A DNA stretch of 64,000 bases from an uncultured bacterium (lineage in GTDB: Bacteria; Chloroflexota; UBA5177; JANWHV01). The stretch lies in assembly GCA_963827235.1 (NCBI GenBank), contig CAWHAE010000012.1, positions 160,001 to 224,000 of the forward strand. Reading direction: 5' to 3'. A program made the position numbers and the translations under genes. Positions 41,624 through 59,305 of the stretch are shown here, one piece after another (the stretch's first letter is position 1; every line of letters begins with the position of its first letter). The notes under the pieces were generated by a model. The model was not told the DNA's origin. It searched no databases and saw nothing but the letters and a program-made list of their open reading frames with translations.

Positions 41624-41766
41624 GTTCTGCTCTCCCATTCCCCGCCGAGCCCCTAAACCGGGGCACTGCGATCATAGTGCCAGGAGCCGGCGAAACCCGC
41701 TACCTTCTCGCGTATGATCACTACGCTGTCTTCTCAAACCGTGTCGCGTTACAACGAGGATGTTCA

Positions 41767-42480: not shown

Positions 42481-42597
42481 TCCGCTCGCGTCGAATCCCT
42501 TGGTGCGCCGACGCTATCTCCAAAGTCAGTAACGTACAAGATAGTATCTGATCTGGTAGCAGAAACGGCAGGCGCCGGCCCGTCCGGCGTATTGCCG

Positions 42598-43689
42598 CTA
42601 CTGTACCATGCCGCGCGCCGCTATCTCCCAGGTCTCCACCACTTCCTCGCCGCGCACGGCAAACACCCGATCGTGCAGGTTGACACAGACGCAGCAATGG
42701 TTCGGCACCACGCGCAGGCGGCTGCCGATGGGCAGCCGGCTACCCTCGGGCATCGTGATCACGCCGTGCTCTTCGCTCAGCCTGGCGACCAGGTAGTCCT
42801 CGTGGCCGATCACGGCTCCGAAGCCGGGAGAGCGCACGGCGACGTCACTGCTCAACGTCTTGGAACCCGAGTCGATAACCGCGCGAGTCGTCGTGGGCCG
42901 GCTCACCACGGTGGTCAGCACGGTCAGGGCACATTGATCGAGGTTGCTCCAGCCGGCAGCCACCTGTGTGCGGTCGGAGAAGACATAGGTGCCCGGCCGG
43001 ATCTCCGTGATCCCGGGAACCTGGGCGGCCGCGGGGCCGGCGGGCGTGCCCGCCACGCTCAGCTCGGGCACGGCGAAACCCTGCTGCCGCATCGCTACGG
43101 CGACGCCCACGAGATGCCGGGCCTCCGCCACGCCGGCGGCTCTGATGCTCTCGACGTCCGGCTGGTCTTTGCTCTGCCCGGCGTACTCCATGAGCCCGAC
43201 CAGCTCGACGCCGGGTAACCGCTCCATCTGCCTTGCCAGCTCGATTACCTGCTCGGGCGACTGCAGGCCGCAGCGCTCCATGCCGCTTTCCACTTCCAGG
43301 CGCACGCCGATGCGCAATCCGTGGCTGGCCGCGGTGCGCGAGATACCCTCGACCACCTCGAAGGAGTCGGCCGCCACGCGTACTTTGGCGTGGGCGGCGA
43401 GCCGGCAGAGCCGCTCCCACTTCAGCTCGCCCCACAGGGGAAAGGCGATGAAGAGATCCTCGATCCCGTGCTGCGCGAATACCTCGGCCTCGCCGAGCTT
43501 CGCCACCGAGAGGCCCGAACTGCCCGCGGCAACCTGCATGCAGCCGATCGCGGGAATCTTGTGCGTCTTGGCATGCGGTCGTATGTCGGTACCCGTGGTC
43601 CGCCCGATCTCCGCCATGCGCCGGATGTTCGCGTGCATGCGATCGAGATCGACGATCAGGCTGGGTGTATCGAGCTCGGCAATGTTCAC
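42598..43689 (-). CDS. Fold-type III PLP enzyme (D-threonine aldolase / D-serine dehydratase, DSD1 family)
   Basis: RPHAKTHK, EIRPGTYVF, IDSGSK, SEEHG, PNHCC. Confidence 0.92.
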   Translation of the reverse strand: MNIAELDTPSLIVDLDRMHANIRRMAEIGRTTGTDIRPHAKTHKIPAIGCMQVAAGSSGLSVAKLGEAEVFAQHGIEDLFIAFPLWGELKWERLCRLAAHAKVRVAADSFEVVEGISRTAASHGLRIGVRLEVESGMERCGLQSPEQVIELARQMERLPGVELVGLMEYAGQSKDQPDVESIRAAGVAEARHLVGVAVAMRQQGFAVPELSVAGTPAGPAAAQVPGITEIRPGTYVFSDRTQVAAGWSNLDQCALTVLTTVVSRPTTTRAVIDSGSKTLSSDVAVRSPGFGAVIGHEDYLVARLSEEHGVITMPEGSRLPIGSRLRVVPNHCCVCVNLHDRVFAVRGEEVVETWEIAARGMVQ

Positions 43690-43935
43690 GTCATGTCTCC
43701 TCGTTAGGATTTACAGCCACCGTCCGAGATGGGATGGTAGCAGACGATACTCGCGGCCGTGACAAATTCTCAAGTCGGCCCAATTCATGGTCATGGTGAA
43801 GACCGCGGCCACCGCGGATGCCGCCTTCAATGCCAACAGCACTGGGATACTCGAGGAAGGTCCGCCGCTGGTTGGGAACGTGAAGTTCAGCCCGGCGCAG
43901 TTCAATGGCGACACCTATATCGTGGGGTCGGCGAC

Positions 43936-46479
43936 TCACGCGCCGGCCCGATCCTCGCCTCCTTGCTCGACCGGCGTCCGCTTCAACGGCCAGTAGTGAC
44001 CGCTTCCCGCGATGGTGGCGCAGGCCGGCACGAAGAACCCGAGCATGATCACCGTGTAGAGCAGCAGGCCGATGATGATGCCCGTACCGATCTCGAGCAG
44101 CGTCGTCATGCCGGAGGCTGTGAGCGAGCCGAAGGTGCCCGCCATGATCATCGCGGCCGAGAAGATCACGATGCCCATCGCTCGCAGGGTAGCGTTCATG
44201 GCTGCGCCGGCGTTCGACCGGCGGACGTACTCCTCGTCATAGCGAGACATCAGGAAGATGCTGTAGTCCACGCCCAGAGCGACGAGCAGGAAGAACATGA
44301 AGAACGGCACCGCCCAGCTCACGCCCGGCTTGCCCACGACGTCGACGAAGACCCATTGTATCGCCGTCATGGTGACGAAATAGGCTATCACCAGAGAGAA
44401 GATCACGTAGAGCGGTGCCACCACCGACCGGAGTAGCGCGATGAGCAGCACGAGCACGGTCACCAGCACCAGTACGGCCGTGCGCAGGAAATCGTCCTGC
44501 GAGACGTTGTTGAGATTCCACTGCTCCGGCGTCGTCTGCGCCGGGCGCACCGTCCCCGTGTTGATCGGGCTGGCCGAGAGCGCCACTTGGGCCGCGTCGA
44601 CCAGTCTGGGTACTGCGTCGATCGCGGTCTCCGCGTAGGGATTGCCCTTCAGGATCACCGTGATCTTGGCGATGTGCCCATCGGGAGAGATGTAGGCGTC
44701 GAGCGCCTGCCGGAGCGTCGCGTTCTGGTCGATCGCCGGCGCCGGCACGTAGAACCCCGGATCGCCCTGCGCCTCCGCGCCGGCGCCAGCCGCGAGCGCG
44801 TCGTGCAGCCGGACCGCGGTGGCGGCCAGGCGGGCGGCGCCCTGTGCCTCCTGCCGCAGGGCGATGTTCACTCTGCCCAGGGACTGCGCGAGCAACGTCG
44901 AAGTGCCGCCGCGCGCGGCAACGCTCTGTTGAATCTGCTGCAGCCCGCTGGCGCTCGCGCTCAGCCCGGAGGCGAGCTGCGTCGCTCCCGACTGCAGGGC
45001 CGCGATGCCCTGGGCAACCTGGGAGTCGCGCGTGGTGAGCCGGAAGGCAGCGATGGGACTTCCGGCCGGTTGCGAGGCGCTATCGATTTCCTGTACCACG
45101 CTCTGCGCGGCCAAGGTCTGCGAGATGCGATTGATCGTGGTCAACCCGGCGGGAGTGTGCAGGTTCGAGCTCGTCTGCAGCACGATCGACATGGGCAAGG
45201 CTCGACCGGTGCCGAAGCCCTGGGATACCGCGTGCAGGCCCTCGATAGAGGGCAGCGAGCTGCTATATTCCGCCAGCGGATCGAACGTGCGCTGGCCCTG
45301 AAAGAAGAGCGCGATCGGCGCCAGGATGACCAGGACCACGGCCACGGTTATCCAGGGCTTGGCCGTGGCAACGCGCGCGGTCCAACCCCAGATGCGGGAG
45401 TCGGGGTGCTCGGCGCCGGGCTTGGGGTGCCGCGGCCAGAACAACGCGGGGCCGAGCACGCCGAGCAGAGCCGGTACGAGCGTGAAGCAGGCGAGCAGCG
45501 TGATCGCCAGCCCGATACATACACCTGCGGCGCTCCTGTAGATGCCGAATCCGGCGAAGAAGAGCGTCGTGAACGATACGAGCACGGTAAGCCCGCTGAA
45601 CACTACCGTCTTGCCAACGCCGGCCAGCGTGCGGTCCAGCGCAGAGTGTCGATCGCCTTGTTTCAGGTACAGCTCCTCGCGGAAGCGCGACAGGAAGAGC
45701 AGGCAGTAGTCCGTGCCGGCACCGAAGAGCACGGCGATCAGGAAGGTCTGCGTGAACGACGAGACGGGCAGGCCGTGCTCGCCCAGGACCGCGACGATAC
45801 GGCTCGTGGTCAGAAAGCTCAAGCCGATGGCGACCAGGGGCACCAGCGCGGCCAGCGGCGCGCGGTAGACCACGAGCAGGATGAGGAGCACGAGCAGCAC
45901 GGTCACGCCGCCCGTCTTCTGCACGCCGTCCTGGCTCGCCTTGACCGTGTCTCGCCTGATCGCGGCATCGCCGGTCACGTACGTCCTGGTACCCGCGGGC
46001 GGATTAGCCAGGGCATCGCGCAGCGCCACCACGCCGTTCATGCTGGCGTCGCTCATGCTGTCGGTGGGAAACCCGGCCACCGCCAGCACGGTGCATCCGT
46101 CCTTGCTCACGAATTGGGACCTGAGCGCCGCGCCGACCACGTTTGCGTCGACGATGCTCGAGAGGTTGTACGTGGAGGCGTGCGAGCCGATGCGGCGCAC
46201 TGCCTGAGAGAAGTAGCTGAGCTGCGCCGGGGTCAATGTGCCGTCGCCCTGGAGCACTAGCACGGCAGAGCTCCGCGCGTGGTGCGTGGGATCGACGCGC
46301 TGCAGCAGGTTTTCGGCCTGGATCACCGTCGACGAATCGGGCAGATTGGGTACCGCGTGGTGTGTGACCACCGATCCGAGATCGGGCAGGGCGAGCGTGA
46401 CGACGGCAAGCAGTGCTAGCCACAAGACCAGCACCAGCCACCGTGCTCTGTACGCGGTACCCCCGATGAGTCGCAGCAT
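43936..46479 (-). CDS. MMPL family transporter
   Basis: GAGTDYCLLFLSRFREE and ALGVDYSIFLMSR in two TM halves. Confidence 0.93.
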   Translation of the reverse strand: MLRLIGGTAYRARWLVLVLWLALLAVVTLALPDLGSVVTHHAVPNLPDSSTVIQAENLLQRVDPTHHARSSAVLVLQGDGTLTPAQLSYFSQAVRRIGSHASTYNLSSIVDANVVGAALRSQFVSKDGCTVLAVAGFPTDSMSDASMNGVVALRDALANPPAGTRTYVTGDAAIRRDTVKASQDGVQKTGGVTVLLVLLILLVVYRAPLAALVPLVAIGLSFLTTSRIVAVLGEHGLPVSSFTQTFLIAVLFGAGTDYCLLFLSRFREELYLKQGDRHSALDRTLAGVGKTVVFSGLTVLVSFTTLFFAGFGIYRSAAGVCIGLAITLLACFTLVPALLGVLGPALFWPRHPKPGAEHPDSRIWGWTARVATAKPWITVAVVLVILAPIALFFQGQRTFDPLAEYSSSLPSIEGLHAVSQGFGTGRALPMSIVLQTSSNLHTPAGLTTINRISQTLAAQSVVQEIDSASQPAGSPIAAFRLTTRDSQVAQGIAALQSGATQLASGLSASASGLQQIQQSVAARGGTSTLLAQSLGRVNIALRQEAQGAARLAATAVRLHDALAAGAGAEAQGDPGFYVPAPAIDQNATLRQALDAYISPDGHIAKITVILKGNPYAETAIDAVPRLVDAAQVALSASPINTGTVRPAQTTPEQWNLNNVSQDDFLRTAVLVLVTVLVLLIALLRSVVAPLYVIFSLVIAYFVTMTAIQWVFVDVVGKPGVSWAVPFFMFFLLVALGVDYSIFLMSRYDEEYVRRSNAGAAMNATLRAMGIVIFSAAMIMAGTFGSLTASGMTTLLEIGTGIIIGLLLYTVIMLGFFVPACATIAGSGHYWPLKRTPVEQGGEDRAGA

Positions 46480-46508
46480 CGTGACGCTCCTTCGCAGCAG
46501 CAGGGAAT

Positions 46509-46557
46509 TGACACAGTGTCAGTTGTTGAGTATACGCAAGATTGACAATCTGTCAAT
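46509..46557. promoter_or_regulatory. Two TetR operators between mmpL and tetR
   Basis: TGACAC-A-GTGTCA (46509-46521) and ATTGACA-ATC-TGTCAAT (46541-46557), shared core TGACA-N3-TGTCA. Confidence 0.72.
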
Positions 46558-46651
46558 GGGAGATTACGATCTCTCAACGAGCCCGGGCGCACGTTGGGGC
46601 TCCGGCTGCGGCTGCGAACCCGCGGTTCCACGAGCGGGAGGGGAGAGACCT

Positions 46652-47248
46652 GTGCGTGCAAGCGACCGGCGGCAGCAGATTCTCGCTGCCGCTCAGGATC
46701 TGTTCATCGAGCGCGGATTCGAACAGGTCACCATGGGTGATATCGCTGCCCGCCTGGGTACGTCCCGCCCGACCATCTACACGTACTTCGCCACCACGTC
46801 CGCCATCCTGGGGGCGCTCTTCGAGAGCGGCCTCGAGCGCCTGTGGGCGCGGCTGGAACCGGTCGTGGCTGCTGCCCAGTCCGAGCCGACCTTGACAGCA
46901 GATCAGTCGGTGATTTCCATCGCCTTCGACGTGCTGATTGACGAGCCCGGCTTCCTAGCCGTTCTGCACAGCGGCGGCGCGCCGGACTTCCAGCGCCGGC
47001 GACGGCATCTGCTCAACGAGCGGATTGCATCCCTCGTCGAGCCGTATCTGCGGCCGGAGCACGGGCCGTATGACGTGCCGATGCTGGTGACGCTGCTCGA
47101 AGGCATGGCCCACTGGGCCCTCGCCGAAGGCGTGACCGACCCCGGCTCCTTGAAAGCCAGCCTGACCAACCTTTTGCGCCACGGCCTGACCCACCCGATA
47201 CGTCTTCCGCAGCCGGGTGCCCAGGACGATCCGAAGCGAGCGGAATAG
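46652..47248 (+). CDS. TetR/AcrR family transcriptional regulator
   Basis: GFEQVTMGDIAARLGTSRPTIYTYF HTH; GTG start after GGGGAG. Confidence 0.9.
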   Translation: MRASDRRQQILAAAQDLFIERGFEQVTMGDIAARLGTSRPTIYTYFATTSAILGALFESGLERLWARLEPVVAAAQSEPTLTADQSVISIAFDVLIDEPGFLAVLHSGGAPDFQRRRRHLLNERIASLVEPYLRPEHGPYDVPMLVTLLEGMAHWALAEGVTDPGSLKASLTNLLRHGLTHPIRLPQPGAQDDPKRAE

Positions 47249-47430
47249 CCTGATCTGCCCTGGCAGCCCGGTCTGAAGGCAAAGCCTACCCGCGCTACGG
47301 CGCCGTACGACAGGCCGGTGAGATCGAGCATCACAGAGCTGGTGCCGGCCGATGCGAAGCAGAACGCGGTGGGCCGGCGGGTGTCAATAGCGGAGCATCC
47401 AGCGCCCTATCGGCGAACGGCAGACCCGTT

Positions 47431-48219
47431 TCAGGCAGGAGTCGGCCGGTTGGGAGCGCCTGCGACGATCGGCCGCGACGCGAGGTCCTCGAGGCTGCGT
47501 AGGAAGCAGACCTCGCCGTGACGGTTGCACTCGCGCACCCAGTCGCGTAGGGCGCTGCTGGCGGCAAGCTGTGCCGAGACGTCGCCGATGACAGCCAGCT
47601 TGAGGCGATAGTTGGCCAGCTTCTGCACCATCTCGCCGGCCACGCCCGAGCGGAGCTGGAAGAAGTCCGCGACCAGTCGGCCGGCGGGCACGGCGATCGT
47701 GGTGGCGCTTGCGCTCAGCGCTTCGCCGATCAGGTCGACGACGCTTTGGCCGGTGGCGAGGGCGGGTCCCGCGGCTTCCAGGCAGAGCACGCGCTCGGCT
47801 CCCACCTCGATCGGCTGCGATGTATCGCCTTCGGTCCAGCCGGACAACCGGCATAGCTCCCTGGCATCCTCCTGCCCTATGGCTTGCAGTCCGAAGGCGA
47901 AGTTGCCGTGCCTCCGCCTGAACGTGCGAAACCACTCGGTCTGGGGAAGCGGCACCGGCGGCACAAACAGGCGACCCGTCGTGCCGCTCAGGTACAGCCT
48001 GAAATCGGGATCGTCGCACAACCCGAACTCGTCGGCCACGAAGACCAGACTGATGTGATAGGACGCTGGACTGCCCACGCCCTCCAGGAGCCACACCGTG
48101 TCGCCCAGGAGATTGGCTACGAACCTGTCCGGCTTCCTGGTATACACGCTCAGATCAGCCGGATCTCCTGCCAGTGTCCCCCTCTTGCCGGCATTGTGAT
48201 ACTGGACGAAGTGCCGCAT
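47431..48219 (-). CDS. Fusion of an unassigned (possibly PUA/EVE-like) N-terminal domain and a C-terminal DUF4180 domain
   Basis: C-term DFFQLRSGVAGEMVQKLANY...GDVS...ECNR (DUF4180); N-term HFVQYHN...GDTVWLLEG...WF...GNFAFGLQ. Confidence 0.7.
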   Translation of the reverse strand: MRHFVQYHNAGKRGTLAGDPADLSVYTRKPDRFVANLLGDTVWLLEGVGSPASYHISLVFVADEFGLCDDPDFRLYLSGTTGRLFVPPVPLPQTEWFRTFRRRHGNFAFGLQAIGQEDARELCRLSGWTEGDTSQPIEVGAERVLCLEAAGPALATGQSVVDLIGEALSASATTIAVPAGRLVADFFQLRSGVAGEMVQKLANYRLKLAVIGDVSAQLAASSALRDWVRECNRHGEVCFLRSLEDLASRPIVAGAPNRPTPA

Positions 48220-48761
48220 CGCGGACCTCAACTCCCGATTCCGGGCACCGGCATTGAATCGCCGGCACTCGGGCTTGACATACCACCCGAGCCGGGGGGC
48301 CGGCGCGCCTTCGTTGCTCGCGCCGGTGGCCGCCACGGGCTCGCGGAGCAGCTGAAAGGAAGTGCCCGTTCGCTGCATCACTGGTGACGGCATTGTACCA
48401 CCGAGGATCCCACGGGCAGCGTCGCTCCTCCTCCTGGGGCCGCTCAGGCAGCTTGCCGAGCCCGTTCGCGCCGCGAGGCAAGCGGGACGCTCGCCGTCCA
48501 GGCGCGCAGCGAATCCCGGCGCTCCCGGTGTGACCGCCATCAGTGTCGCAATCGTGACGAGGCCGTGTCCGGTTTCACAGCGATGGGAGACATGCTCGGC
48601 GATTCTCGGGCCGCAGGGACGACCGCGCTCCCTGCGATCGCCGGACCGAAGTTCTGGAGCACGGCGACGCTCCTGAGGGCGAATCCGCTAAGCACCGTGG
48701 CCTGCTCGCAGGTAGACTGAAGCAGAGCCCCCATCCCCTTTTCGCTGGCGGGAGTGCATCT

Positions 48762-49364
48762 GTGGTGCCGCAACTCGATTTCAGACCCGTGACGGCGACG
48801 CGCCATGCCCTCAAGGAGTGGGCCGTGGCGGTCGATGCCCTCCGCGACGGGGATAGCCTGCTCACCGTGAGAAAAGGGGGCATCCGCGAGGCAGGACGCG
48901 AGTTCCGCATGGAGCATCGCCTGTTCGTGCTCTTCCCCACCTTCGAGCATCAGAACGCCGCGCAGGTCGGTGCCCGCTATCAGGAGCGTCTCCAACGGGT
49001 GATCGCCGCGGCACCCGAGGCAGGCTTGGCCACCATTACGGCCTGGGCCGAGGTGACCGACGTCGTGGAGGTGACCGGCGACGAGGCCGTGCGCGCGGTC
49101 GCCGAGTTCTCCGTGTTCTCGCCGGCCTATGCCATCGAGCGCCTGCAGTGGCGGCCCAAGAAGCCGCTGTCCGTTCTGGTGCTGCGCGTGCACCGGCTGG
49201 CCGAGTCGGTCACGCTGGAGGTCTTGCCCACCTACGGCGGCTGCAAGTCCTGGATCGACCTCGAGCCCGAGATCGCCCTGGATCCATCCGTTGCGGCGCT
49301 GGACGACCGCGCGTTCGAGGATGCTCGTCGCCGCGCGCTGGCGCGTCTTCCCGCTTCCGAGTAA
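48762..49364 (+). CDS. DUF1802 family protein
   Basis: ALKEWA, RKGGIRE, LFPTFEHQ, YGGCKSWI. Confidence 0.88.
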   Translation: MVPQLDFRPVTATRHALKEWAVAVDALRDGDSLLTVRKGGIREAGREFRMEHRLFVLFPTFEHQNAAQVGARYQERLQRVIAAAPEAGLATITAWAEVTDVVEVTGDEAVRAVAEFSVFSPAYAIERLQWRPKKPLSVLVLRVHRLAESVTLEVLPTYGGCKSWIDLEPEIALDPSVAALDDRAFEDARRRALARLPASE

Positions 49365-49459
49365 AGACCTCATTAACCGCGCTGGGCGTTGCGGGGGCTG
49401 AGTCGTGGGCCGGCCGCCGCGCGGCAGGCCCGGCAGAGGGGACACACCGGAGAGAGAAC

Positions 49460-49493
49460 AAAAAAAGGGCTGCCCACTCAGGGTGGGCAGCCC
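49460..49493 (-). terminator. Intrinsic terminator for a minus-strand transcript
   Basis: 11-bp perfect stem GGGCTGCCCAC/GTGGGCAGCCC, 5-nt loop, followed by T7 on the minus strand. Confidence 0.85.
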
Positions 49494-49606
49494 GATCCGC
49501 GTCCGCTTGGGTCGACGGCCGGAAGTCTCCGGCTATTCCCTGGATCCGCGACCGCTTTCAGCGCCGTTCTCACCGCCGCCACCCTCCTCCGCTCGTCCTC
49601 AACTCT
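49460..49606 (-). ncRNA. Candidate ~147-nt small RNA (or 31-aa peptide mRNA) divergent from the WYL gene
   Basis: TACAAT -10 at 49618-49613, purine-rich 5' part, hairpin GCCGGA-GACT-TCCGGC, ends in a strong terminator; no long ORF. Confidence 0.5.
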
Positions 49607-49624
49607 GTTAGTATTGTACTCCTG

Positions 49625-49649
49625 CATTAGGGCATATCCGGTCCTAATG
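49625..49649. promoter_or_regulatory. Putative WYL (YafY) operator 1
   Basis: CATTAGG-GCATATCCGGT-CCTAATG palindrome; repeated at 49740. Confidence 0.7.
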
Positions 49650-49715
49650 GGGGACATAATCCACGAGATTTCGGCGGTCTGGTGCGGCGCCGCTTCCCCG
49701 TGCCGTGTCGTCGGT

Positions 49716-49763
49716 TGTGCGTATACTGAAGCGAGCCATATTAGGGCATCAATGGTCCTAATG
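49716..49763 (+). promoter_or_regulatory. -10 box of the WYL gene followed by putative WYL operator 2
   Basis: TATACT 49722-49727; ATTAGGGCATCAATGGTCCTAATG 49740-49763. Confidence 0.65.
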
Positions 49764-49934
49764 ATCGGGCGCGAGGTGGCTCTTGGGGCCTGGGAATAGC
49801 CGGCGGCCGGGCTGTTCCCCGCCGCGGCTCGTGTATGCCGGAATCGACGTCACCGCGGTCGCCGGGAAGGCGGCCGCTGGTTGCCGGCAGGCGCCTCATG
49901 CCTGCGTTCGATCGTCGAATGGAGCGGTTGTGCG

Positions 49935-50888
49935 ATGTACCACCCCACTACGCGGCTGCTGGCTATGCTCGAGATGCTGCAATCGCGCGGACGGCTTAGC
50001 GGCGCCGAGCTGGCCGAACGCCTCGAAGTGGACCGGCGCAGCGTGCGCCGCTACGTGGAGACGCTCCAGGACCTCGGCATCCCCATCGAGGGCACGCGCG
50101 GGCAGTATGGAGGCTACCGCCTCCTGCCGGGCTACAAGCTGCCTCCCCTGCTCTTCACGGAAGCCGAGGCGGTGGCGCTGACCCTGGGACTGGTCGGACT
50201 GCGGCGCTGGGGTCTGGCCATGACCTCGGTGACCGTGGAGGGCGCGTTGGCCAAGCTGGAGCGCGTGCTGCCGAATGCGGCCCGCGCCCGCGTCAAGGCG
50301 GTCCAGACCCACCTGGCGCTGGAGACCGCCACGAGGGACACGCCGGTGGAAAGCACCACAGTCATTCTGCTGAGCACGGCGGCCGCACAGGGCCACAGCG
50401 TCCTTCTGCGCTACCAGGCGCAGGGAGGCGAGGAGACGGAGCGCGTGGTCGATCCCTATGGCGTGGTCAACTGGACGCGTAGCTGGTACATGGTGGGCTT
50501 CTGCCACCTTCGCCAGGCTCCGCGCATGTTCCGGCTCGACCGCGTCAAGCGCCTTGTCGAGCACGAAGGGCGCTTCGATCCGCCGGCCGACTTCGATTAC
50601 CTGGGCTACGTGATCGAGCACGTGGTCGCCTGGGGCGACGCCCATGCGGTCGAAGTGTGGATCGGACTGGAGCTGAGCGAGGCGCGCAGGCAGGTGCCGC
50701 CGGGCTATGGCCTGCTCGAGGCGGAAGGTGACGGCGTGCGCCTGCGCTCGCAGACGGACAACCTGAGCTGGTTCGCAAGCTTCCTGCTCGGCCTGGATTG
50801 CCCGCTGGAAGTACGCAAGCCGGACGAGCTCAAGACGGCCTTGCGGCGAGTAGCGCGGCGGCATCTGCGAGTGGCCCAGCACGCCTGA
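49935..50888 (+). CDS. YafY-family HTH-WYL-WCX transcriptional regulator
   Basis: RLLAMLEMLQ, ELAERLEVDRRSVRRY, GGYRL..LPPL, RVVDPY, WYMVGFCHLR, FRLDR. Confidence 0.94.
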   Translation: MYHPTTRLLAMLEMLQSRGRLSGAELAERLEVDRRSVRRYVETLQDLGIPIEGTRGQYGGYRLLPGYKLPPLLFTEAEAVALTLGLVGLRRWGLAMTSVTVEGALAKLERVLPNAARARVKAVQTHLALETATRDTPVESTTVILLSTAAAQGHSVLLRYQAQGGEETERVVDPYGVVNWTRSWYMVGFCHLRQAPRMFRLDRVKRLVEHEGRFDPPADFDYLGYVIEHVVAWGDAHAVEVWIGLELSEARRQVPPGYGLLEAEGDGVRLRSQTDNLSWFASFLLGLDCPLEVRKPDELKTALRRVARRHLRVAQHA

Positions 50889-51045
50889 CGGGCAGCAACG
50901 CCGTGCGCCGGATACGACCTCGGCACGGTCAGGTTCGGCGTTCCCGGCGGCACACGCGCCACAACAGTGGGATTCTTGCAGAGAAAAGCCTGCCCAGCTG
51001 TTGCCAATGTGCGTATGCTGAGAGTAGTGACGAGGAGAGCATGCG

Positions 51046-51438
51046 ATGGCCCAACGCCCGCCGCCACTCTGGCAACCGGTTCGACAGCTGCCTTTCGTGG
51101 CAGCCTTGATCGACGACCTGTCGCAGACAGCGGAGAAGCAGTATCAGACCCTCCGGCGCGCCGGTGACGGCACACACGAGCTCGACGAGTATGCGCTCAG
51201 GCAGATTGTCGACCTGTTCTCGCGAGAGCGCGATGATCTGCCCGTGTTTGAGGAGCAGTTGCAGCGCTGGCTGGCGCTGGACCTGAGCGAGACTCAGGAG
51301 CACGAGATACGTCGTCTGCGGGGGCGTCTGGACCGCCTGGGCGAGCTGGTGCCCGCGATCCTGGCCATGGCCGAAGAGCTCAAGAGCAGCATCATCAGGG
51401 ACCTGTCGCTGCGACGACGGACTCACTACCCCTTGTGA
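51046..51438 (+). CDS. Helical hypothetical protein
   Basis: RBS GAGGAG, ATG, coding-like codon use, WQP...EEQLQRW pattern. Confidence 0.7.
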   Translation: MAQRPPPLWQPVRQLPFVAALIDDLSQTAEKQYQTLRRAGDGTHELDEYALRQIVDLFSRERDDLPVFEEQLQRWLALDLSETQEHEIRRLRGRLDRLGELVPAILAMAEELKSSIIRDLSLRRRTHYPL

Positions 51439-51468
51439 CCGGCTTTGCCCCGCCCGGCCTCCCTCGAA

Positions 51469-52938
51469 TCAGACGCCGGGTGAATCGCCGGCGAGCGGCG
51501 GCCACAACGATTGCACCTCGGGCATGGCCGAACACAGGGCGTGGGCGGCTCGCAGGACCAGCGACTCGCTCCAGGACGGCCCGGTGAGCTGCATGCCTAC
51601 CGGCACACCCTGCTCGTCGAAACCGGCGCGGAACGCGCAGGATGGCAGGCCGGCCAGGTCCTGAGGCGTGGTGTAGGGCAGCACGAGACTGCGGAACGGC
51701 ACGTTCCGGCCGTCGTGCAGGAGATCTTCGTCGCCGATCCGTACGGGCGATCCGGCGGCCACGGGGGTGAGCAGCAGATCGATCTCGCCGTCGAAGAGCT
51801 GCGCGAAGTCGGTCCGCACTTGCCGGCGAGCCTGCCGAGCCTCGATGTACTCGGCAAGCGTGATCCGGGCCGCCTGCTCCAGCCGCGACGCCACGTCCGC
51901 GCCGTACAGCGACTTCCGGGCAGGGTAAAGACCGTATTGCACGTGATGGACTCGGTACGCCTCGGCATCCCGGATCGCGCGGAAAGTGCTATCGATCAGC
52001 CCGGCTGAGAGCAGAGAGACGTCGATAAGCCTGGCGCCCAGGCCGGCAAGCAGGCGCGTGCTGGCCTCGAAGGCGCCGCGCACGCCGGCGCTCAGCGCCA
52101 CCGGATGCAAATCGGGGCAGATACCCACGCGCAGCGAGGCGATGCCCTGCCGCAGCGCGTCCGAGTAGCGCGGCACTGCCATCACCTCGGCCGAGCGGTC
52201 GCCGGGCTCGTGGCCCGCCAGCACCTCCAGCAGCAAGGCGGCGTCCTCTACGGTGCGAGCCATGGGACCGGGATGGTCCAGCGATTGGGCCAGCGGGAAG
52301 ACACCCCTCGCGCTGACGCGCCCGTAGGATGGCTTGAGACCCACCACGCCGCAGTACGCTGCCGGGATGCGAATCGATCCGGCCGTGTCGGTGCCCAGCG
52401 CCGCCGGAACCATGCGGGCGGCCAGTGCCACGGCGGAGCCTCCGCTCGATCCGCCCGCCACCACACCCGGGCTCCAGGGGTTGTGTGTCGGTCCAAAGTG
52501 CGGGCTCACGGTGGTGATGCCCCAGGCGAACTCGTGCGTGGCCGTCTTGCCGATCAGTATGGCTCCGGCGTCCCTGAGCCGGCGGACCGCCGTCGCGTCC
52601 TCGGCCGGCACGTGCTCGGCGAAGATCGGCGATCCGTACGTGGTCCGCAGTCCGGCCGAGTCGTACATGTCCTTGGCCGCGAAAGGAATGCCGTGGAGCG
52701 GGCCGCGGGAATGGCCGCGGGACAGCTCCTCGCCGCGCGATCGCGCCTCGGACAGCGCCTGCTCCGCGGCGACGGTGCTGAAGGCACGCAGGGCCGGGTT
52801 GCCGGCTTCGATGCGCTCCAGCAAGCGGCCGATCACTTCCAGCGGCGAGAATGCCCGCGACGCGTAACCCGCACGCAGCTCGGCGATGCTCATCATGGCC
52901 AGATCGGTATGCGTCACGTGGCGTTTCCCCACACTCAC
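51469..52938 (-). CDS. Amidase signature family enzyme (GatA-like)
   Basis: GIPFAAKD, GGSSGGSA, GTDTAGSIRIP, GLKPSYG; start may be a few codons downstream. Confidence 0.93.
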   Translation of the reverse strand: MSVGKRHVTHTDLAMMSIAELRAGYASRAFSPLEVIGRLLERIEAGNPALRAFSTVAAEQALSEARSRGEELSRGHSRGPLHGIPFAAKDMYDSAGLRTTYGSPIFAEHVPAEDATAVRRLRDAGAILIGKTATHEFAWGITTVSPHFGPTHNPWSPGVVAGGSSGGSAVALAARMVPAALGTDTAGSIRIPAAYCGVVGLKPSYGRVSARGVFPLAQSLDHPGPMARTVEDAALLLEVLAGHEPGDRSAEVMAVPRYSDALRQGIASLRVGICPDLHPVALSAGVRGAFEASTRLLAGLGARLIDVSLLSAGLIDSTFRAIRDAEAYRVHHVQYGLYPARKSLYGADVASRLEQAARITLAEYIEARQARRQVRTDFAQLFDGEIDLLLTPVAAGSPVRIGDEDLLHDGRNVPFRSLVLPYTTPQDLAGLPSCAFRAGFDEQGVPVGMQLTGPSWSESLVLRAAHALCSAMPEVQSLWPPLAGDSPGV

Positions 52939-53260
52939 CGCACGGCTGAAAAGCCGATCATCCGAATGTCAGCATATCGTACCCGTGCCACGCGTATGCG
53001 GGTGCGAGCCTCTCGCGGGCGTACCTGACATCTGTGATCTTGCGCTTCGGCTAGCCGCTCCTGGGACCGCGGCCGTCTCGGCCGCCTCCGGAGGTGTCGG
53101 CCATGGCTTCCATCGTCTCGCGTCAACACGCCTCTGCGTGACGATACCCAGGTGGCCCCGCCTCTAGCCCGATGAAGCGCCAGTGACGAACGTTGAGCAG
53201 TCTGCCGGTGCCATTACGGCAGCTCTCGGCCCGGCGAGCAGGCAGCCCGAGCGCTCACAG

Positions 53261-54037
53261 TCACCGGTCTGCCACGCCCACGGCCACCGCTCGATCCGAA
53301 GGGCCAGGTGCGGCCTCGGCGCGGCGCTGCAGCGCGTAGATGACCCACGGCGCTACCTTCGTCTCGCTCACCCACTCGTACGGCTCCGTGCCGGAGGCAA
53401 GGGGTCTGTACACGCCGACCGGCCGCAGGCCCGCCGCCTCGTACACGGCGCGATACGCCGCGTCCGTGCACAGGATGTCGTCGACCGGCCGCCGATCGCC
53501 GTGGTCGGTGACCACCGTGCGCACGCGGTCGCCGTCACGGGCCTGCCGGTTCTCCGGGAAGTCGCTGGTCGTAAATGACGCCCACTCGTGCGTGTAGATG
53601 TCCGGCGACGAGACGATGCTCACTATTGTCCCACCGGGGGCAAGCAGGCCGGCCAGGCTGGTGAAGATTCTCACCTTCTCGGCGGCCGGAATGTTGTCGA
53701 AGGTGAACGCGGAAAGCACCAGGTCGAAGGACTGCCCGGCGAAGATGCTCAGATCGTCGCCAGGTACCAGGCGATAGTCGCCTGCCGGGTCCGAGGCTCG
53801 GGCAATGCCAAGCATATCCTCCGAGATGTCCACGCCGGTGGAGGCGAAGCCGAGCCGCCGGAGCAAGCGTGTCGAGCGTCCGGTGCCGCAGCCGAAATCA
53901 AGGGCCCGCGTGCCGCCCGCGTGCGCGGAGATGATCTGAGGCAGGTCGCGACAGGCGAGGTGGTAAGTGTTGTCGAAGGCTAGCGTGGCGTAGGCGGCAG
54001 CGCGGCCGGCATCCTCGTAGCAGTTGGTGAATCCCAT
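53261..54037 (-). CDS. Class I SAM-dependent methyltransferase
   Basis: ALDFGCGTG, GVDIS, FDLV, LAPGG. Confidence 0.9.
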   Translation of the reverse strand: MGFTNCYEDAGRAAAYATLAFDNTYHLACRDLPQIISAHAGGTRALDFGCGTGRSTRLLRRLGFASTGVDISEDMLGIARASDPAGDYRLVPGDDLSIFAGQSFDLVLSAFTFDNIPAAEKVRIFTSLAGLLAPGGTIVSIVSSPDIYTHEWASFTTSDFPENRQARDGDRVRTVVTDHGDRRPVDDILCTDAAYRAVYEAAGLRPVGVYRPLASGTEPYEWVSETKVAPWVIYALQRRAEAAPGPSDRAVAVGVADR

Positions 54038-54329
54038 TGCTTCTCCCGCACAACAAATGCGACTTCAGGTCACGGCCCGATCGATCGCTTCGAGCCTTGG
54101 GCAGTCTTCAATCTATTCACTGGAAATCCCGCTCGCAAGCGCCAATTCACGGCAAACGGCCGGGCCATTTCGTGTTCTTGGCGAGGCAGGAGCCGCTTCG
54201 CGTTCCGGCGACGCGGCCGGCTTCATCATGCTCCTCGCATGCCCATCCCGCATGCCGCCGCCGTTGCCGGCTCGAGCGCGGGTACGGCCAGAGGTCGTTT
54301 GCCCTGTTCGTCGCGATCCCAGCTCACCC

Positions 54330-54627
54330 GTGGGGATTCCATCCTTATGCCGGGATCCGCGGCCGCGTCGAGCCGCTGCTCGGGCGTCATCCCGATCTGG
54401 CGGGTCAGAGAGCCGTCGAGTTTCGTATCATTCTGGATGACCGGGAGGTCTTCCGCAGCGGCAGGATGACCGGCGCGACAACGGCACGTCGAGTCGTAAT
54501 CCCGCCACGCCACGCGTCCGCCATGACGCTGCAGGCGGAGGATGCCTTAGTGCAGGGCAGGTGGTGGCACGGTCAAGCCATCTGCGGCCAGCCACGGCTG
54601 ATACGAACCACGCCGGCAGGATCCTGA
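54330..54627 (+). pseudogene. Fragment encoding an NPCBM/NEW2-like carbohydrate-binding domain
   Basis: VEFRIILDDREVFRSGRMTG...MTLQAED...CGQPRL; no credible start. Confidence 0.5.
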
Positions 54628-54750
54628 TCCCTTGACGCGGGCCTTGGTTGCCGCGCGCTCCATTCAAGCGCGGGACAGTCCGGCATGCCACGTGCAGCCT
54701 CGGATCTCGATCACCGGCCGTCGACGTGTAGAGAAAGGCGTCCTTTGCAC

Positions 54751-55398
54751 ATGCAATTGATCATTGTTCGTCACGGTCAATCAACAGGCAACATCACCAC
54801 GGACGACGTACCGGACGGCGACCTCACGCCAGCCGGCCTGCGGCAGGCGCGCGAAACCGCCCAGCGGTTGGCTGGTGAGGGCATCACCCACGTCATCGCC
54901 AGCCCGCTGGTGCGCGCCCTGCTCACCGCTACCGCGATTGCCGATGCGTCCGGCATCGATCAGGTCGCGGTGTGGCCCGCGTTGCAGGAGCATCGCGACA
55001 CCCTGCATCGCGGGCTGGGCAGGAAGGCACTGCTCAGCCGCTCGCCAAAAGCTCTTCTTCCGGACAGCGTGGAAGAGGACGGTTGGGACCACGGGGACGA
55101 GACGCACGAATCCGCTCGCCGGCGCGCGGTGGACGCGCTTGCCGCGTTGCGCGCACGCTATCATGCCGCCGAGAAGGTGGTAGTTGCCACGCACTGGACG
55201 TTTGGCTGCTACCTGCTGCGGGCCGTGTTCCACGTGCAAAGCCCGCTTCCCGTGTGGTTCAAGCTGAACAACTGCGGCGTCAGCAGGATCGACTTTGCCG
55301 ACCCGCCCTCGCACGATCCCGGGTTCGACTATGAGATGGCAGAGGTGAACGTCGTGAGCGTGAACGACGTCTCGCACCTGAGCGAGATATCGCAGTGA
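54751..55398 (+). CDS. Histidine phosphatase (phosphoglycerate mutase) family protein
   Basis: VRHGQS, LTPAGLRQA, ASPLVRA, VVATH, NDVSHL. Confidence 0.9.
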   Translation: MQLIIVRHGQSTGNITTDDVPDGDLTPAGLRQARETAQRLAGEGITHVIASPLVRALLTATAIADASGIDQVAVWPALQEHRDTLHRGLGRKALLSRSPKALLPDSVEEDGWDHGDETHESARRRAVDALAALRARYHAAEKVVVATHWTFGCYLLRAVFHVQSPLPVWFKLNNCGVSRIDFADPPSHDPGFDYEMAEVNVVSVNDVSHLSEISQ

Positions 55399-55549
55399 CA
55401 GCACGTGAGCCGGCGATCGGCCTGCACGTGTTCCCGGTGGGGTAGAATCCCGAGTGTAGACGCGGGCACTCCTGCGCGGCGGGACGCGCTCCGCGCGATG
55501 CGGCTGCCAGGCCGGCGCCGCGCATAAGGCCCAGGGAGGAGACCCCGTC

Positions 55550-56536
55550 GTGTCGAAGCTCACGATCGCGCTGTTGCAGATGACTTCGTGCGGCGCCGAC
55601 GTCGCGCTGAACCAGGCCAAGGGCGAGGACTACTGCCGGCGGGCCGCCGCCATGGGCGCGGATGTCGCTCTGTTCCCCGAGATGTGGAGCAACGGCTACG
55701 CGTCGTTCGCCGTCTCGAGCGGTGATGGGCCGGATCTCTACCGGGCACGGCAACGCTGGGTACAGGATCCGCGCCCGGCGCCGTCGATCGACCCCGAGGC
55801 CTACCAGAGCTGGGCGGAAGGCGCCCTTGAAGACACCGGCCCCTACGTGGCCACCTTTCGCGACCTAGCTCGCCGGCTCGACATGGCTATTGCCGTCACC
55901 TACTTGCAGCGTTGGCAGGGTGCGCCACGCAACGCCATGACCCTGATCGACCGGCATGGGGAACTCATGTTCACCTACGCCAAGGTGCACACCTGCGACT
56001 TTGACCTGCCGGAAGCGTGCCTGACTCCCGGCGATGAGTTCTACGTGTGCGACCTGGACACGGCGGCCGGGACCGTCAAGATCGGCGCCATGATCTGCTA
56101 TGATCGCGAGTTCCCGGAGAGCGCGCGCATTCTGATGCTCAAAGGCGCCGAGATCATCCTCACACCCAATTCCTGCGATCTCGAAGCGCATCGTATCGCC
56201 CAGTTCCGTGTGCGTGCCTTCGAGAACATGGTGGGCGCAGCGATGACCAACTACGCGGCGCCGCAAGAAAACGGCCACTCCGTGGCCTTCGATCCGATCG
56301 CCTTTGGCGAGCACGGCGTCTCGCGCGACACCTGCGTGGTCGAGGCCGGCGAGGAGGAAGGCATCTACCTGGCAAGGTTCGACCTCGGCAACCTGCGGGA
56401 CTGGCGGTTGCGGGAGACCTGGGGCAACTCCTTCCGCAAGCCGCATCGCTACGGCCTGCTCACGTCGCTCGGGGTCGCCGAGCCCTTTGTCCGCCTCGAC
56501 TCGACCGGCCGCCCCTACGACAGGACGCGCCGGTAA
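55550..56536 (+). CDS. Carbon-nitrogen hydrolase (nitrilase superfamily)
   Basis: LFPE, YAKVH, MICYDREFPE catalytic E-K-C triad. Confidence 0.93.
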   Translation: MSKLTIALLQMTSCGADVALNQAKGEDYCRRAAAMGADVALFPEMWSNGYASFAVSSGDGPDLYRARQRWVQDPRPAPSIDPEAYQSWAEGALEDTGPYVATFRDLARRLDMAIAVTYLQRWQGAPRNAMTLIDRHGELMFTYAKVHTCDFDLPEACLTPGDEFYVCDLDTAAGTVKIGAMICYDREFPESARILMLKGAEIILTPNSCDLEAHRIAQFRVRAFENMVGAAMTNYAAPQENGHSVAFDPIAFGEHGVSRDTCVVEAGEEEGIYLARFDLGNLRDWRLRETWGNSFRKPHRYGLLTSLGVAEPFVRLDSTGRPYDRTRR

Positions 56537-56644
56537 GCACGCGGCGCACCTGGACCGCAGTCCCTCATGAGCTGCCATGCGTTCGCAATCGCGGGCTGCC
56601 GCGGCCCCACCTGCCCTGCCGCGGCCGGAGGCCGGTCCGGCCAA

Positions 56645-59305
56645 TCACAAGGTCTTGAAGATCGTGATGCTCCCGCCCCGGTCGGTCTCCGCGATGCCGC
56701 CGTTGAGCACCACCACCAGGCCTCGATGCTCGTCGACGGCCACTGCAATCGGCTGCGTGCCGACGCGCACGGTGCGCACGACCTGGCCGGTGGCGGTGCT
56801 GAGTACGCTGACCGTGCCGCTGCCCTGGTTGGTCACGTAGACGCGCCCATGCGTGCCGTCCAGCGCGGCCGCGCTGGGTGAAGCGCCCACTTTGACGATG
56901 CGTACGAGCTTGCCCTGCGCGGTATCCAGGACGGCGACGGCGTCGTCGGCGGGGTCCAGCACGAAGGCGTGCCTGCTGCTCGGATCGACCAGAATCGACC
57001 GCGGTGTCACACCAATGTTTACCGGTGCCTGCAGCCGGTTCCCCACTACCAGACCGACGCCGCCTCCCAGCGATATGAGGGCGCTGCCTTTGGCGGGCGC
57101 CGCCGCGACGGCCCAGGGAAGGGCACTGCCCAGGCGAACGGATGTGATCAGCTTCCCGCTTCGACCGTCCAGCACCAGCAGGCTGCTGGGCGTCATTTGG
57201 TCCACGACGTAGACCCGGCTGCCGTCGCTGCTCACCGACAACGCGTACGGGTCGCCGGAGACCACGCAGCCGGCTATCGCCGCGGTGGCCGCGTCGATGG
57301 CACAGGTGCGCCTACCGGCAATCACAAACAGGCGATTCGTGGGCACGTCGACCGCCAGCGCGTACGGCGCGCCGCCGTTCGCCAGGCCGCCTAGTGAGAT
57401 GCCTTTGCCGCTAGCTCGTCCGCTCCGGCTGTCGTACACCCCGACCGATTCGCCGGTTCCGTTGGCTACGAACAGGCGGTGGATGGCCGGGTCGACCGCT
57501 ATCCGCCAGGGTGCCGATCCCGTTGCCTGGTCGGGCAGCAGGTGCCCCGTGGTCTGGTCGATGGTCAGAAGCAGGTTGTCGTTGCTCATGGCGACAAAGA
57601 CGCGCCCGGCGGCGGCGTCGACGGCCAACAGCCCGGCATTCCCATAGGGCGCGTGCGTGCCGGCAAGCGGGGCGTGGGACAGCGGCACGGTACACGGCGA
57701 CGCGCAGGATGCCGCGGCCGCGGTTCTTGTAGCCCTCGGCCTCGCCGTGGCAGTCGGTCGTTGCGTGCTGGTCGGCCGGCGCGTGCTGGTCGGTCGTGGC
57801 GTGCTGGTCGGTCGTGGCGTGCTGGTCGGCTTTCTGGTCGCCGTGGCGCTGGCGGTCGGTCTCTTGGTCGCCGTGGCGCTGGCGGTCGGTCTCCTGGTTG
57901 CCGTGGCCCTGGGCGTCGCCGTGGGTCTTGCCGTGGGCGTGCGGGTGGGAATGACCGGCGTGGCCGTGCTGGTTCGGGTGGCGGTCGGCGCAGCGGGCTT
58001 GCCTTCGACGTAGAGGCGGACAGTGGCTACGAGGCCGCTGTGCGTCCCCGATACCGAGATCGTGTTCCAGCCGTATGGCGCCGAGTTGGGCACCTGGAAC
58101 CGGAGACTGCCGAACCTGCCCTGGCCATCGGCGACCACCGCTAGCATGAAGGCGCCGTCAAACCGGCCCAGCACGATCTCGTTGGCGGCATATTGCGTGC
58201 CGCTGACCACGATCCAGTCGCCGCGGTGCGCGGTCGACGGATGCACCGACAGCACCGGCTTGACCAGCGGCTCGATCACCAGCGTCGTGGTGGCGGCTCG
58301 GCGACTGCGGCTGCCGGTAGCCGTCACGGTATGCCGTCCGGCGCCGAAGGCGGCGCGGAAGCTGATCGAGAACTTGCCGGTCTGGTCGCTGGTCGCGCCG
58401 GCAATCCGCTTGCCGTCGACGCCGATCGCTACCGGCTCCTTCGGCGCAAAGCCGGTGCCGGCCAGGGTCGTCACTCCGCCCGCCGCTAGGGAGCCGGGGT
58501 TCAGCGTCACCACAGCCGGCGATGCCGCGATGGACAGCGCTGCCGCGGCCGTGTCCCCGCCCGGTCGCCCGGTCGCCGATACCACGTGCAGTCCCGGCGA
58601 GAGCGTGGCTGGTACCTGCAGCGCACCGCTCGTGAAGCTTCCGCTATTGTCGGCGGTCGCCGTCCCGGCGGCGGTGCCGTCCAGCTCCAGGCTGACGGTC
58701 TCTCCCGGGGTGAAGCCGGCGGCCGATACGACGAAGGTCGAGCCGGCGACACATATCAGGGGCGTGAGGTCGATTGCCGGCGGCGGCGCGATCCGCGCCA
58801 CGACCGTCGCTATGCCCGCTACGGTGCGGCCGCTGGACACTCCCCTCATGGTAATCGTGTACGTGCCGAGGGCGGTGCCGCTCGGCACCGTGTAGGCGTA
58901 CCCCTCGAGCTTGCCGGCCGTGTCGGCCAGGCCGTAGCCGCTGGATCCATCCGCGTAGGTGACCAGGATTTGCTCGCCCGGACTGAAGCCGGTCGCCGTC
59001 ACCAGCGTGACGCCGCCGGCGACCACGACGGGCGGGGTCAAGGTAACCATGGTGACATAGGGCGTGGTTGCCGCCACAATCGGCACCGGCGAGGCGGCCG
59101 CGTCGCGCACCGCCTGGCCTTGCGCGCCCAGCATGCCATAATGCCCTCGAGTGGGCGATTGCGCTCCCGGTAAATCCGTGGCAGTCTGAGCACGTACTAT
59201 TGATGAGCTCAAGAATGGTAGGGGACCGGCGCTCGTGACGGCGATGCTCAAACCAAGAGCCATTGGCACTGTTGCCTTGAGCAGCATTCTTGCTGGAATC
59301 GCCAT
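56645..59305 (-). CDS. Secreted protein: Ig-like repeats, Thr/Pro/Arg linker, YVTN beta-propeller
   Basis: Signal-like N-terminus, four G(F/Y)xxxE(x)(V/I) Ig-like modules, RVYVTNQGSGTVSV repeats. Confidence 0.85.
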   Translation of the reverse strand: MAIPARMLLKATVPMALGLSIAVTSAGPLPFLSSSIVRAQTATDLPGAQSPTRGHYGMLGAQGQAVRDAAASPVPIVAATTPYVTMVTLTPPVVVAGGVTLVTATGFSPGEQILVTYADGSSGYGLADTAGKLEGYAYTVPSGTALGTYTITMRGVSSGRTVAGIATVVARIAPPPAIDLTPLICVAGSTFVVSAAGFTPGETVSLELDGTAAGTATADNSGSFTSGALQVPATLSPGLHVVSATGRPGGDTAAAALSIAASPAVVTLNPGSLAAGGVTTLAGTGFAPKEPVAIGVDGKRIAGATSDQTGKFSISFRAAFGAGRHTVTATGSRSRRAATTTLVIEPLVKPVLSVHPSTAHRGDWIVVSGTQYAANEIVLGRFDGAFMLAVVADGQGRFGSLRFQVPNSAPYGWNTISVSGTHSGLVATVRLYVEGKPAAPTATRTSTATPVIPTRTPTARPTATPRATATRRPTASATATKRPTASATATRKPTSTPRPTSTPRPTSTRRPTSTQRPTATARPRATRTAAAASCASPCTVPLSHAPLAGTHAPYGNAGLLAVDAAAGRVFVAMSNDNLLLTIDQTTGHLLPDQATGSAPWRIAVDPAIHRLFVANGTGESVGVYDSRSGRASGKGISLGGLANGGAPYALAVDVPTNRLFVIAGRRTCAIDAATAAIAGCVVSGDPYALSVSSDGSRVYVVDQMTPSSLLVLDGRSGKLITSVRLGSALPWAVAAAPAKGSALISLGGGVGLVVGNRLQAPVNIGVTPRSILVDPSSRHAFVLDPADDAVAVLDTAQGKLVRIVKVGASPSAAALDGTHGRVYVTNQGSGTVSVLSTATGQVVRTVRVGTQPIAVAVDEHRGLVVVLNGGIAETDRGGSITIFKTL
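57770..57905 (-). repeat. Tandem 18-bp and 30-bp coding repeats (PTSTPR, PTASATATRK-like)
   Basis: GTGCTGGTCGGTCGTGGC units and GCCGTGGCGCTGGCGGTCGGTCTC units. Confidence 0.85.

Follow-up and report, generated by a model that had tools for sequence, protein, structure and literature searches.

A WYL-domain regulator of an uncultured Chloroflexota bacterium faces a short, terminator-closed divergent unit that may be a non-coding RNA

WYL-domain regulators are known as activators of protein-coding genes for damage response or defense. Here we examine a locus of an uncultured Chloroflexota bacterium in which the divergent partner of such a regulator may instead be an RNA. At positions 49460 to 50888 of a 64,000-nt window (positions 160001 to 224000 of contig CAWHAE010000012.1; coordinates below are those of the window), a YafY/PafBC-type regulator gene stands divergent from a unit of about 147 nt with a predicted promoter, a strong terminator, and no credible protein product. 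This unit was originally predicted, from the sequence alone, to be a stress-induced small RNA (sRNA); we tentatively favor the reading that it is a WYL-controlled non-coding RNA, at a little less than an even chance. The nearest described layout is that of SiwR of Mycobacterium smegmatis, which is reported to bind through its helix-turn-helix (HTH) domain to an imperfect palindrome of 19 bp that extends from -10 to -35 at a divergent operon, to depend on the -26 region, and to activate when its WYL domain senses single-stranded DNA (ssDNA) (PMC10693628). The same report gives the SiwR target as a two-gene dinB-like operon across a spacer of about 60 bp, notes glyoxalase-like neighbors, and describes PafBC as a mycobacterial DNA-damage activator, a heterodimer or fused protein with a regulon of more than 150 genes, which acts from the -26 region of its promoters (PMC10693628).

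The window's regulator is likened to SiwR by layout, with activation and ssDNA sensing in the window being assumptions carried over from SiwR. Both appear to be locally acting, homodimer-type HTH-WYL proteins whose genes stand divergent to the target, the target promoter in each case lacks a usable -35 and has an imperfect palindrome from the -10 to the -35 position, and relatives of the window protein face glyoxalase-type and other small detoxification-type genes. The slot that the SiwR account assigns to a protein operon of the DinB superfamily is occupied in the window, however, by a 147-nt terminated unit without a credible open reading frame (ORF) or protein family, and the window has two operators (O1 and O2), lying 298 nt and 184 nt from the regulator's start codon. 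PafBC has the same HTH-WYL-WCX build and, among solved structures, gives the best sequence match (6sj9, 9.7e-20; the 7p5x and 9fnd chains reach about 8e-12), but the window has a single gene and only two perfect sites in the genome. WYL regulators of the BrxR and CapW type in defense islands (PMC9122601, PMC9122589) also share the domain build and have palindromic operators in their own upstream regions. They are repressors of downstream operons rather than partners of a divergent short unit, and the four other neighboring proteins tested in the window match no PADLOC defense model.

The regulator itself is well defined. The enclosing plus-strand ORF (49881-50888) matches Pfam HTH_11 (8.6e-18), WYL (5.1e-22), WCX (6.2e-08), and HTH_PafC (9e-10), so that the N-terminal winged helix-turn-helix, central WYL, and C-terminal WCX domains are all present and the WYL identity given in the original prediction is borne out; the PADLOC WYL model also matches (7.9e-61). 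We take the gene as 49935-50888 (317 aa, likely start ATG 49935) because the alignments of relatives begin at this ATG (residue 1). The gene is intact and host-like in codon usage, with a codon score of 0.42 and a G+C content at third codon positions (GC3) of 0.86, which argues that the system is in use. Binding of a nucleic-acid ligand by its WYL domain is assumed from SiwR and PafBC. The upstream neighbor, a DUF1802 gene (48762-49364; Pfam 1.9e-53), lies on the same strand as the WYL gene across a 570-nt spacer, and the short unit is thus the sole divergent thing facing the regulator.

The spacer is organized around two operators. O1 (ATTAGGGC-N7-GTCCTAAT) is the palindrome ATTAGGGCATATCCGGTCCTAAT at 49626-49648. 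It precedes a minus-strand -10 box by 7 nt, occupies the place where a -35 would be expected, and is flanked by back-to-back -10 boxes. This palindrome had been recognized from the outset, but its second copy, O2 (49740-49762), had been missed; it lies 114 bp from O1 in the same orientation and just downstream of a plus-strand TATACT. The pattern ATTAGGNC-N7-GNCCTAAT is present twice in the window against 0.04 occurrences expected, and O1 and O2 are the only perfect copies in the genome (8 Mb, 95.9% complete, and 65% G+C on average, with high G+C in the window as well). Allowing up to two mismatches yields five genome sites, and a reversed control pattern also yields five. With two perfect copies confined to the spacer and no excess of mismatched sites over the control, this looks like a local regulon, and the regulator looks strictly local. 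Joint duplication of O1 and O2 with their flanks was considered and rejected, as the flanks are dissimilar (79/500 and 330/500 shuffles score equally).

The divergent promoter has the -10 box TACAAT (minus strand, 49613-49618), exactly where it had been described, with neither a -35 nor a TG extension; scanning 48500-51500 recovers no full sigma-70 consensus promoter, in agreement with the earlier view that the palindrome replaces a consensus -35. The 17-bp core of O1 is 10 nt from this box and spans about -39 to -23 of the promoter. On the WYL side of O1, CATAAT (plus strand, 49654-49659) lies 9 nt from the core and may be the upstream promoter of the WYL gene, with TATACT (plus strand, 49722-49727) as a putative second WYL promoter that would place O2 at about +6 to +28. 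O2 is 15 nt downstream of TATACT, and neither of its sides has a -10 box at the distance typical of the family. We note that the promoter-like strings TGTGCGTATACTGA (49716-49729), preceding the WYL leader, and TGTGCGTATGCTGA (51008-51021), preceding an unannotated 130-aa ORF (51046-51438), are nearly identical, which may reflect the preferred -10 context of the organism. The 10-mer CGGTTGTGCG also occurs twice, 213 nt apart, abutting TATACT (49712-49721) and the WYL start codon (49925-49934); this pair may be a coincidence, or it may be what remains of an insertion by which the leader was extended and O2 acquired.

Comparison with related WYL loci shows that this promoter geometry is a family trait. 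Thirty loci at 34 to 53% identity were screened for a palindrome near the WYL start and 22 have (A/C)GGNC-N7-GNCC(T/G); the eight palindrome-less loci (L036, L077, L078, L079, L086, L088, L018, and L019) were left out, L075, being identical in sequence to L039, gave way to L016 in the operator-centered step, and counts over relatives take in two genomes flagged as unpublished (G018 and G055), on which no individual claim depends. The full palindrome of the window is not found in these relatives, and it is the operator core alone that is common to them. In 16 of the 22 loci, a TAnnnT hexamer is found at a distance of exactly 10 nt from the 17-bp core on its divergent side (TATACT, TATTGT, TACAGT, TACATT, TAGCGT, or TACAAT), and no other offset recurs; these 16 represent about seven sequence groups from three phyla (by record titles) rather than 16 independent cases, and between groups the spacers differ while the 10-nt distance is constant. 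Among the six loci without a box, three (L080, L082, and L017) have a co-directional upstream gene, and two (L016 and L081) end at contig ends, about 200 and 256 nt upstream of the gene. On the WYL side, 8 of the 22 have TAnnnT at 10 nt. AGGNC-N7-GNCCT is, as judged from these aligned sites, the operator core of the window protein's WYL subfamily, and the TACAAT of the window sits at the family distance from O1.

The operator center is 25 to 89 nt from the WYL start in 20 operator-centered loci and about 64 nt in L016. In L074 it is 523 nt away, with a 100-codon ORF with a hydrophobic middle in between; this closest metagenome relative (49% identity), in which an operator with TACAAT faces an isochorismatase gene, has the only other long operator-to-gene gap seen. 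The best matches to the regulator (50, 47, and 40% identity) are three paralogs in one genome of the same phylum, followed by matches of 49 and 48% in two metagenome-assembled genome records and of 49 to 53% on metagenome contigs; four genomes of the same genus have no relative above 38%, and viral contigs have none. Two more distant loci, L017 and L018 (34 to 35% identity), adjoin a Y-family DNA polymerase gene and a UvrA-like gene, which fits a DNA-damage theme in the wider family.

The minus-strand promoter is probably real and controlled by the window's regulator, because its -10 geometry is that fixed in the family and because it matches the published SiwR layout. Since SiwR activates and the promoter has neither -35 nor TG extension, we infer activation rather than repression. 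The unit can therefore be described, as it was originally, as self-contained: it would be operator-linked, it is closed by a terminator, and it occupies the target slot of its subfamily at the fixed -10 distance. It is conceivable that there is no discrete unit at all and that a -10-like box, a palindrome, and a hairpin are merely juxtaposed, as the failure of the promoter scan to find a full consensus would allow; we regard this as quite unlikely, given that the -10 box keeps the operator distance of the family and that the terminator is far beyond chance.

The predicted transcript runs leftward from 49606, 7 nt after the -10 box, and would end in the T run at 49460. These 147 nt contain 59 G, 28 A, and eight GGA triplets, and they finish in an intrinsic terminator (minus strand, 49460-49493) with a perfect 11-bp stem (9 G-C pairs), a 5-nt loop, and T7, with the tail TTTTTTTGTT. 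The terminator had been proposed with this stem and T run, and it withstands comparison both with shuffled sequences (two terminator-like sites in 48500-51500 against a mean of 0.8) and with the genome at large. Runs of at least six T number only 96 on both strands of the 8-Mb genome, and a perfect stem of at least 8 bp followed directly by at least six T occurs at three sites, one of which is the window's terminator; looser rules give 329 sites. The other two strict terminators close T-box leaders, at about 56870-57150 (plus strand) of contig G000:C8 (L128; 69.1 bits, E = 1.7e-14) and about 476250-476530 (minus strand) of G000:C9 (L129; 84.4 bits, E = 1.9e-18), both scores lying below the Rfam gathering score of 93. 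Target-gene ends of relatives have a terminator-like site in one of nine loci, and that one is weak. As strict terminators otherwise stand at T-box leaders and the gene ends of relatives are mostly without one, a terminator of this grade would mark the end of a regulatory RNA rather than that of an ordinary gene.

As had been noted originally, no minus-strand gene accounts for this terminator: the only long minus-strand ORF upstream of it (49896-50882, 328 aa) is antisense to the WYL gene, and Pfam assigns no family to it or to the rest of the eight ORFs that lie within or overlap the spacer. Assignment of the hairpin to the DUF1802 gene was tried and rejected, as three DUF1802 homologs of the same genus (58 to 66% identity) have other downstream DNA and no such hairpin. 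Because the two comparable terminators both belong to T-box leaders, the unit might be an orphaned cis-acting leader, that is, the promoter, leader of about 110 nt, and conditional terminator of a minus-strand gene now gone or displaced by DUF1802, and a minus-strand ORF (48540-49445) does begin 15 nt after the T run. This ORF (301 aa) is, however, antisense to DUF1802 and has no Pfam family and no ribosome-binding site; the unit matches no Rfam riboswitch or leader, its computed fold offers no anti-terminator alternative (no systematic search for one was made), and target genes of relatives begin 7 to 50 nt after the -10 box, without long leaders. We consider an orphaned leader very doubtful.

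The 5' part of the unit is mRNA-like (minus strand, 49478-49590). A strong Shine-Dalgarno-like GGAGGAGG (49590-49583) is followed after 9 nt by GTG 49573, which opens a 31-codon ORF that stays open to TGA 49478 in the terminator loop, and the unit could thus be the mRNA for a peptide of 31 aa, or of 34 aa from GTG 49582, as the original prediction allowed. The codon score of the 31-codon ORF (-0.21, by genome codon usage) falls in the bottom 3.9% of 5,000 real pieces of 31 codons, close to the means of -0.29 and -0.31 for off-frames, and at 0.65 its GC3 is below the median of 0.80. For the enclosing 59-aa frame, 1.84 billion representatives yield no match at E of 0.001 or below, no Pfam family is found in the ORF of the unit, the last codons and the stop are inside the terminator hairpin, and the peptide has no hydrophobic or other recognizable character. 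The product of the unit is thus probably not a protein by these measures, and we rate a small-protein mRNA as improbable.

As an RNA, the unit has the outward features predicted of a stand-alone sRNA: it is about 150 nt long, its promoter appears to be regulated, and a single-stranded, purine-rich 5' part is followed by a central hairpin and a strong U-tailed terminator. The hairpin GCCGGA-GACU-UCCGGC (minus strand, 49533-49518) and the two occurrences of CGCGGAUC noted originally are both there, the latter lying inside a 15-nt repeat, AAGCGG(A/T)CGCGGATC, the copies of which (minus strand, 49508-49494 and 49557-49543; 14/15 identity) flank the hairpin. Of the usual features of a trans-acting sRNA gene, the unit has an apparent promoter of its own and an intrinsic terminator without a credible ORF, but conservation with structure-preserving changes is not found. 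No Hfq gene is found in the 95.9%-complete genome.

The eight GGA triplets had been read as a possible sponge that titrates a CsrA-like protein. The count is correct, only 0.27% of the window's 147-nt tiles reach it, and the genome has one CsrA gene (74.2 bits), but 438 of 2,000 dinucleotide shuffles reach eight, so that dinucleotide makeup can account for the count. The CsrA gene lies within a flagellin-FliW-CsrA cluster; in Bacillus subtilis, CsrA of this type is known to be antagonized by the FliW protein rather than by RNAs. As the predicted structure is diffuse (frequency of the minimum free energy [MFE] structure, 0.0086), presentation of GGA in loops cannot be claimed, and a CsrA sponge appears highly improbable.

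The best lead to an RNA function is a motif that the unit shares with the WYL leader. The 15-nt CCAGGGAATAGCCGG of the short RNA (minus strand, 49529-49543) has a twin, CCTGGGAATAGCCGG, in the WYL leader (plus strand, 49789-49803; 14/15 identity), and the 12-mer GGGAATAGCCGG within them has only these two occurrences in the genome (minus strand, 49540-49529; plus strand, 49792-49803), each sense to its predicted transcript. The leader copy forms the 5' arm of a predicted hairpin present in the centroid fold, and the copy in the short RNA could therefore pair with the 3' arm of this hairpin; the WYL leader was also considered as a structured element in its own right and rejected (z = -1.10). 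Pairing of the short RNA was calculated against the starts of five neighboring genes, three pieces of the leader, and the 3' region of DUF1802, and with a simple duplex calculation only the leader segment 49800-49870 stood out (-83.2 kcal/mol, reached by 1 of 1,500 genomic 71-mers and 0 of 500 shuffles).

At the DNA level, the two copies constitute an inverted repeat that brackets both operators and all three -10-like boxes, and in a variant of the idea that there is no discrete unit, this repeat would mark an invertible promoter segment. The repeat reaches only p ~0.01 in local alignment (3/300 shuffles) and the window contains no gene for a resolvase or an integrase, the nearest matches on the contig being at 1.38 to 1.39 Mb. 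The idea that the entire unit and the WYL leader are inverted duplicates was rejected, as the 15-mer alone aligns.

A number of observations weigh against a WYL-controlled RNA. The fold of the unit is little better than those of shuffled sequences (MFE of -62.2 against -58.4 ± 4.0 kcal/mol; z = -0.96; 39 of 200 shuffles fold as well), and once intramolecular folding is included, the pairing signal with the leader weakens (gain of -16.7 against -11.3 ± 4.1, with 13 of 150 shuffles as good), so that this pairing is not robust. The Rfam scan proposed originally returns no family for the unit (best match Atu_C7, 13.8 bits, E = 3.1), and the proposed comparison with related genomes finds no homologous DNA: only chance-level matches of 17 to 31 nt appear in 60 relatives, the genome itself, and 400 genomes of the phylum, and plasmids and phages have none. 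A functional sRNA as the product, including the stress-induced sRNA first envisaged, is thus not supported by homology, Rfam, or fold searches, although the operator-linked geometry on which that proposal drew stands. In the collections searched, the identity of relatives to the regulator does not exceed about 53%. Of 69 related loci for which 150 nt or more of upstream DNA was available, one (L108, a 26% relative) has a terminator-like site on the minus strand in the 650 nt before the WYL start, and the arrangement in the window is thus a singleton among the loci examined, with no recurring class.

What relatives keep in the divergent slot, by contrast with the window, is protein genes, as had been stated originally for YafY-type genes in general. 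Pfam assignment of 32 upstream ORFs identifies the divergent gene in 10 related loci, coding for GST (L037 and L039), LysE (L038 and L076), alpha/beta hydrolase (L043, L044, and L084), glyoxalase (L072), MFS (L073), and isochorismatase (L074) proteins. The presence of these genes in the slot gives weight to the idea that the unit is a relic: the promoter, leader, ribosome-binding site, start, and a few codons of a former protein-coding target, joined to a terminator by internal deletion or rearrangement, and inert even if transcribed. The spacing of GGAGGAGG and GTG 49573, 39 nt after the -10 box, resembles a normal mRNA start, and the lack of structure and conservation signals in the unit would be expected of a remnant. 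In addition, four genomes of the same genus contain no DNA match to 47205-50992, a 3.7-kb stretch that takes in a DUF4180-containing ORF and DUF1802 along with the short unit and the WYL gene. Both flanks do match and are about 293 kb apart in one of these genomes (G001), which fits rearrangement and gene loss.

One possible trace of a former target involves SpoU. The first codons of the unit (ALKAVADPGN) resemble ALNSVADPGN, motif 1 of a SpoU methylase encoded at L123 (Pfam 9.3e-33), with a 31-nt DNA match of 90% at this motif, and two of four SpoU proteins of the genome also align (three of five overall). The domain (SpoU_methylase, PF00588) is undetected at E up to 10 in four frames or pieces, however, none of 93 related loci has a SpoU gene nearby, and the PGN codons fall within the motif that the unit shares with the non-coding WYL leader. 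This identification is without statistical support and is kept as a weak lead only.

The relic is a serious rival, as the original prediction had anticipated in its alternative of the shell of a deleted gene, and yet on balance we think it somewhat less likely than a non-coding RNA. A perfect terminator of a grade seen three times in the genome is not what the target genes of relatives would leave behind, since most of these have no terminator, and both operators are perfect and the regulator intact with host-like codons, when a targetless regulator should decay. We favor a working unit because of the family-fixed promoter geometry, the two perfect operators, the intact, host-adapted regulator, and the terminator of RNA-element grade.

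With the unit read as a WYL-controlled non-coding RNA, the regulator would be a local protein of the SiwR/PafBC kind, a dimer of which binds O1 and O2. O1 would fill the -35 place of the leftward promoter, which has only its -10 box and would fire only when the regulator assists RNA polymerase; by analogy, the regulator may be switched on when its WYL domain binds a nucleic-acid signal such as ssDNA. The RNA would begin near 49606 and most likely be untranslated, and a terminator that ranks among the strongest of the genome would end it at about 147 nt. As O1 and O2 are also on the path to the regulator's own gene, autoregulation is plausible, and the sole visible target besides the regulator itself would be a short, lineage-specific, non-coding RNA, which could pair with the 3' arm of the leader hairpin or share a binding partner with the leader. 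The more specific proposal that this is a stress-induced sRNA, produced only while the regulator is active and feeding back on it through pairing of the genome-unique GGGAAUAGCCGG with the hairpin's 3' arm or through being bound by the Sm-like WYL domain, is one to which we give little credence.

The surroundings of the locus show several further features. The minus-strand ORFs 47431-48540 and 48540-49445 overlap by ATGA, as in coupled genes; the latter, as noted above, is antisense to the well-supported DUF1802 gene and without a family, and the former is matched by DUF4180 over its last third only, which leaves about 47800-48760 without an assigned gene. No Rfam family reaches its gathering score in 40000-60000, and no tRNA, tmRNA, or tandem repeats are found at the locus. 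An intergenic element of about 140 nt (53018-53161) has more than 25 further copies at 66 to 97% identity across the contigs of the genome, and a shorter repeat (56550-56606) has about eight copies; neither has an Rfam family at gathering score.

No WYL regulator with an sRNA as its dedicated target was found in the literature searched, and this would be the first WYL regulator known to have one if the proposed reading is true. If the 147-nt unit works as an RNA, it would add an RNA output to the WYL class and provide a compact model made up of a regulator, its two operators, and a single RNA; should it be a stub, the locus would be a clean snapshot of a local regulator being orphaned. Whichever reading is right, the sequence comparisons provide a usable rule for this WYL subfamily, a 17-bp AGGNC-N7-GNCCT operator with the -10 box of the target exactly 10 nt away, and this should help to predict the targets of many unstudied YafY-type regulators.

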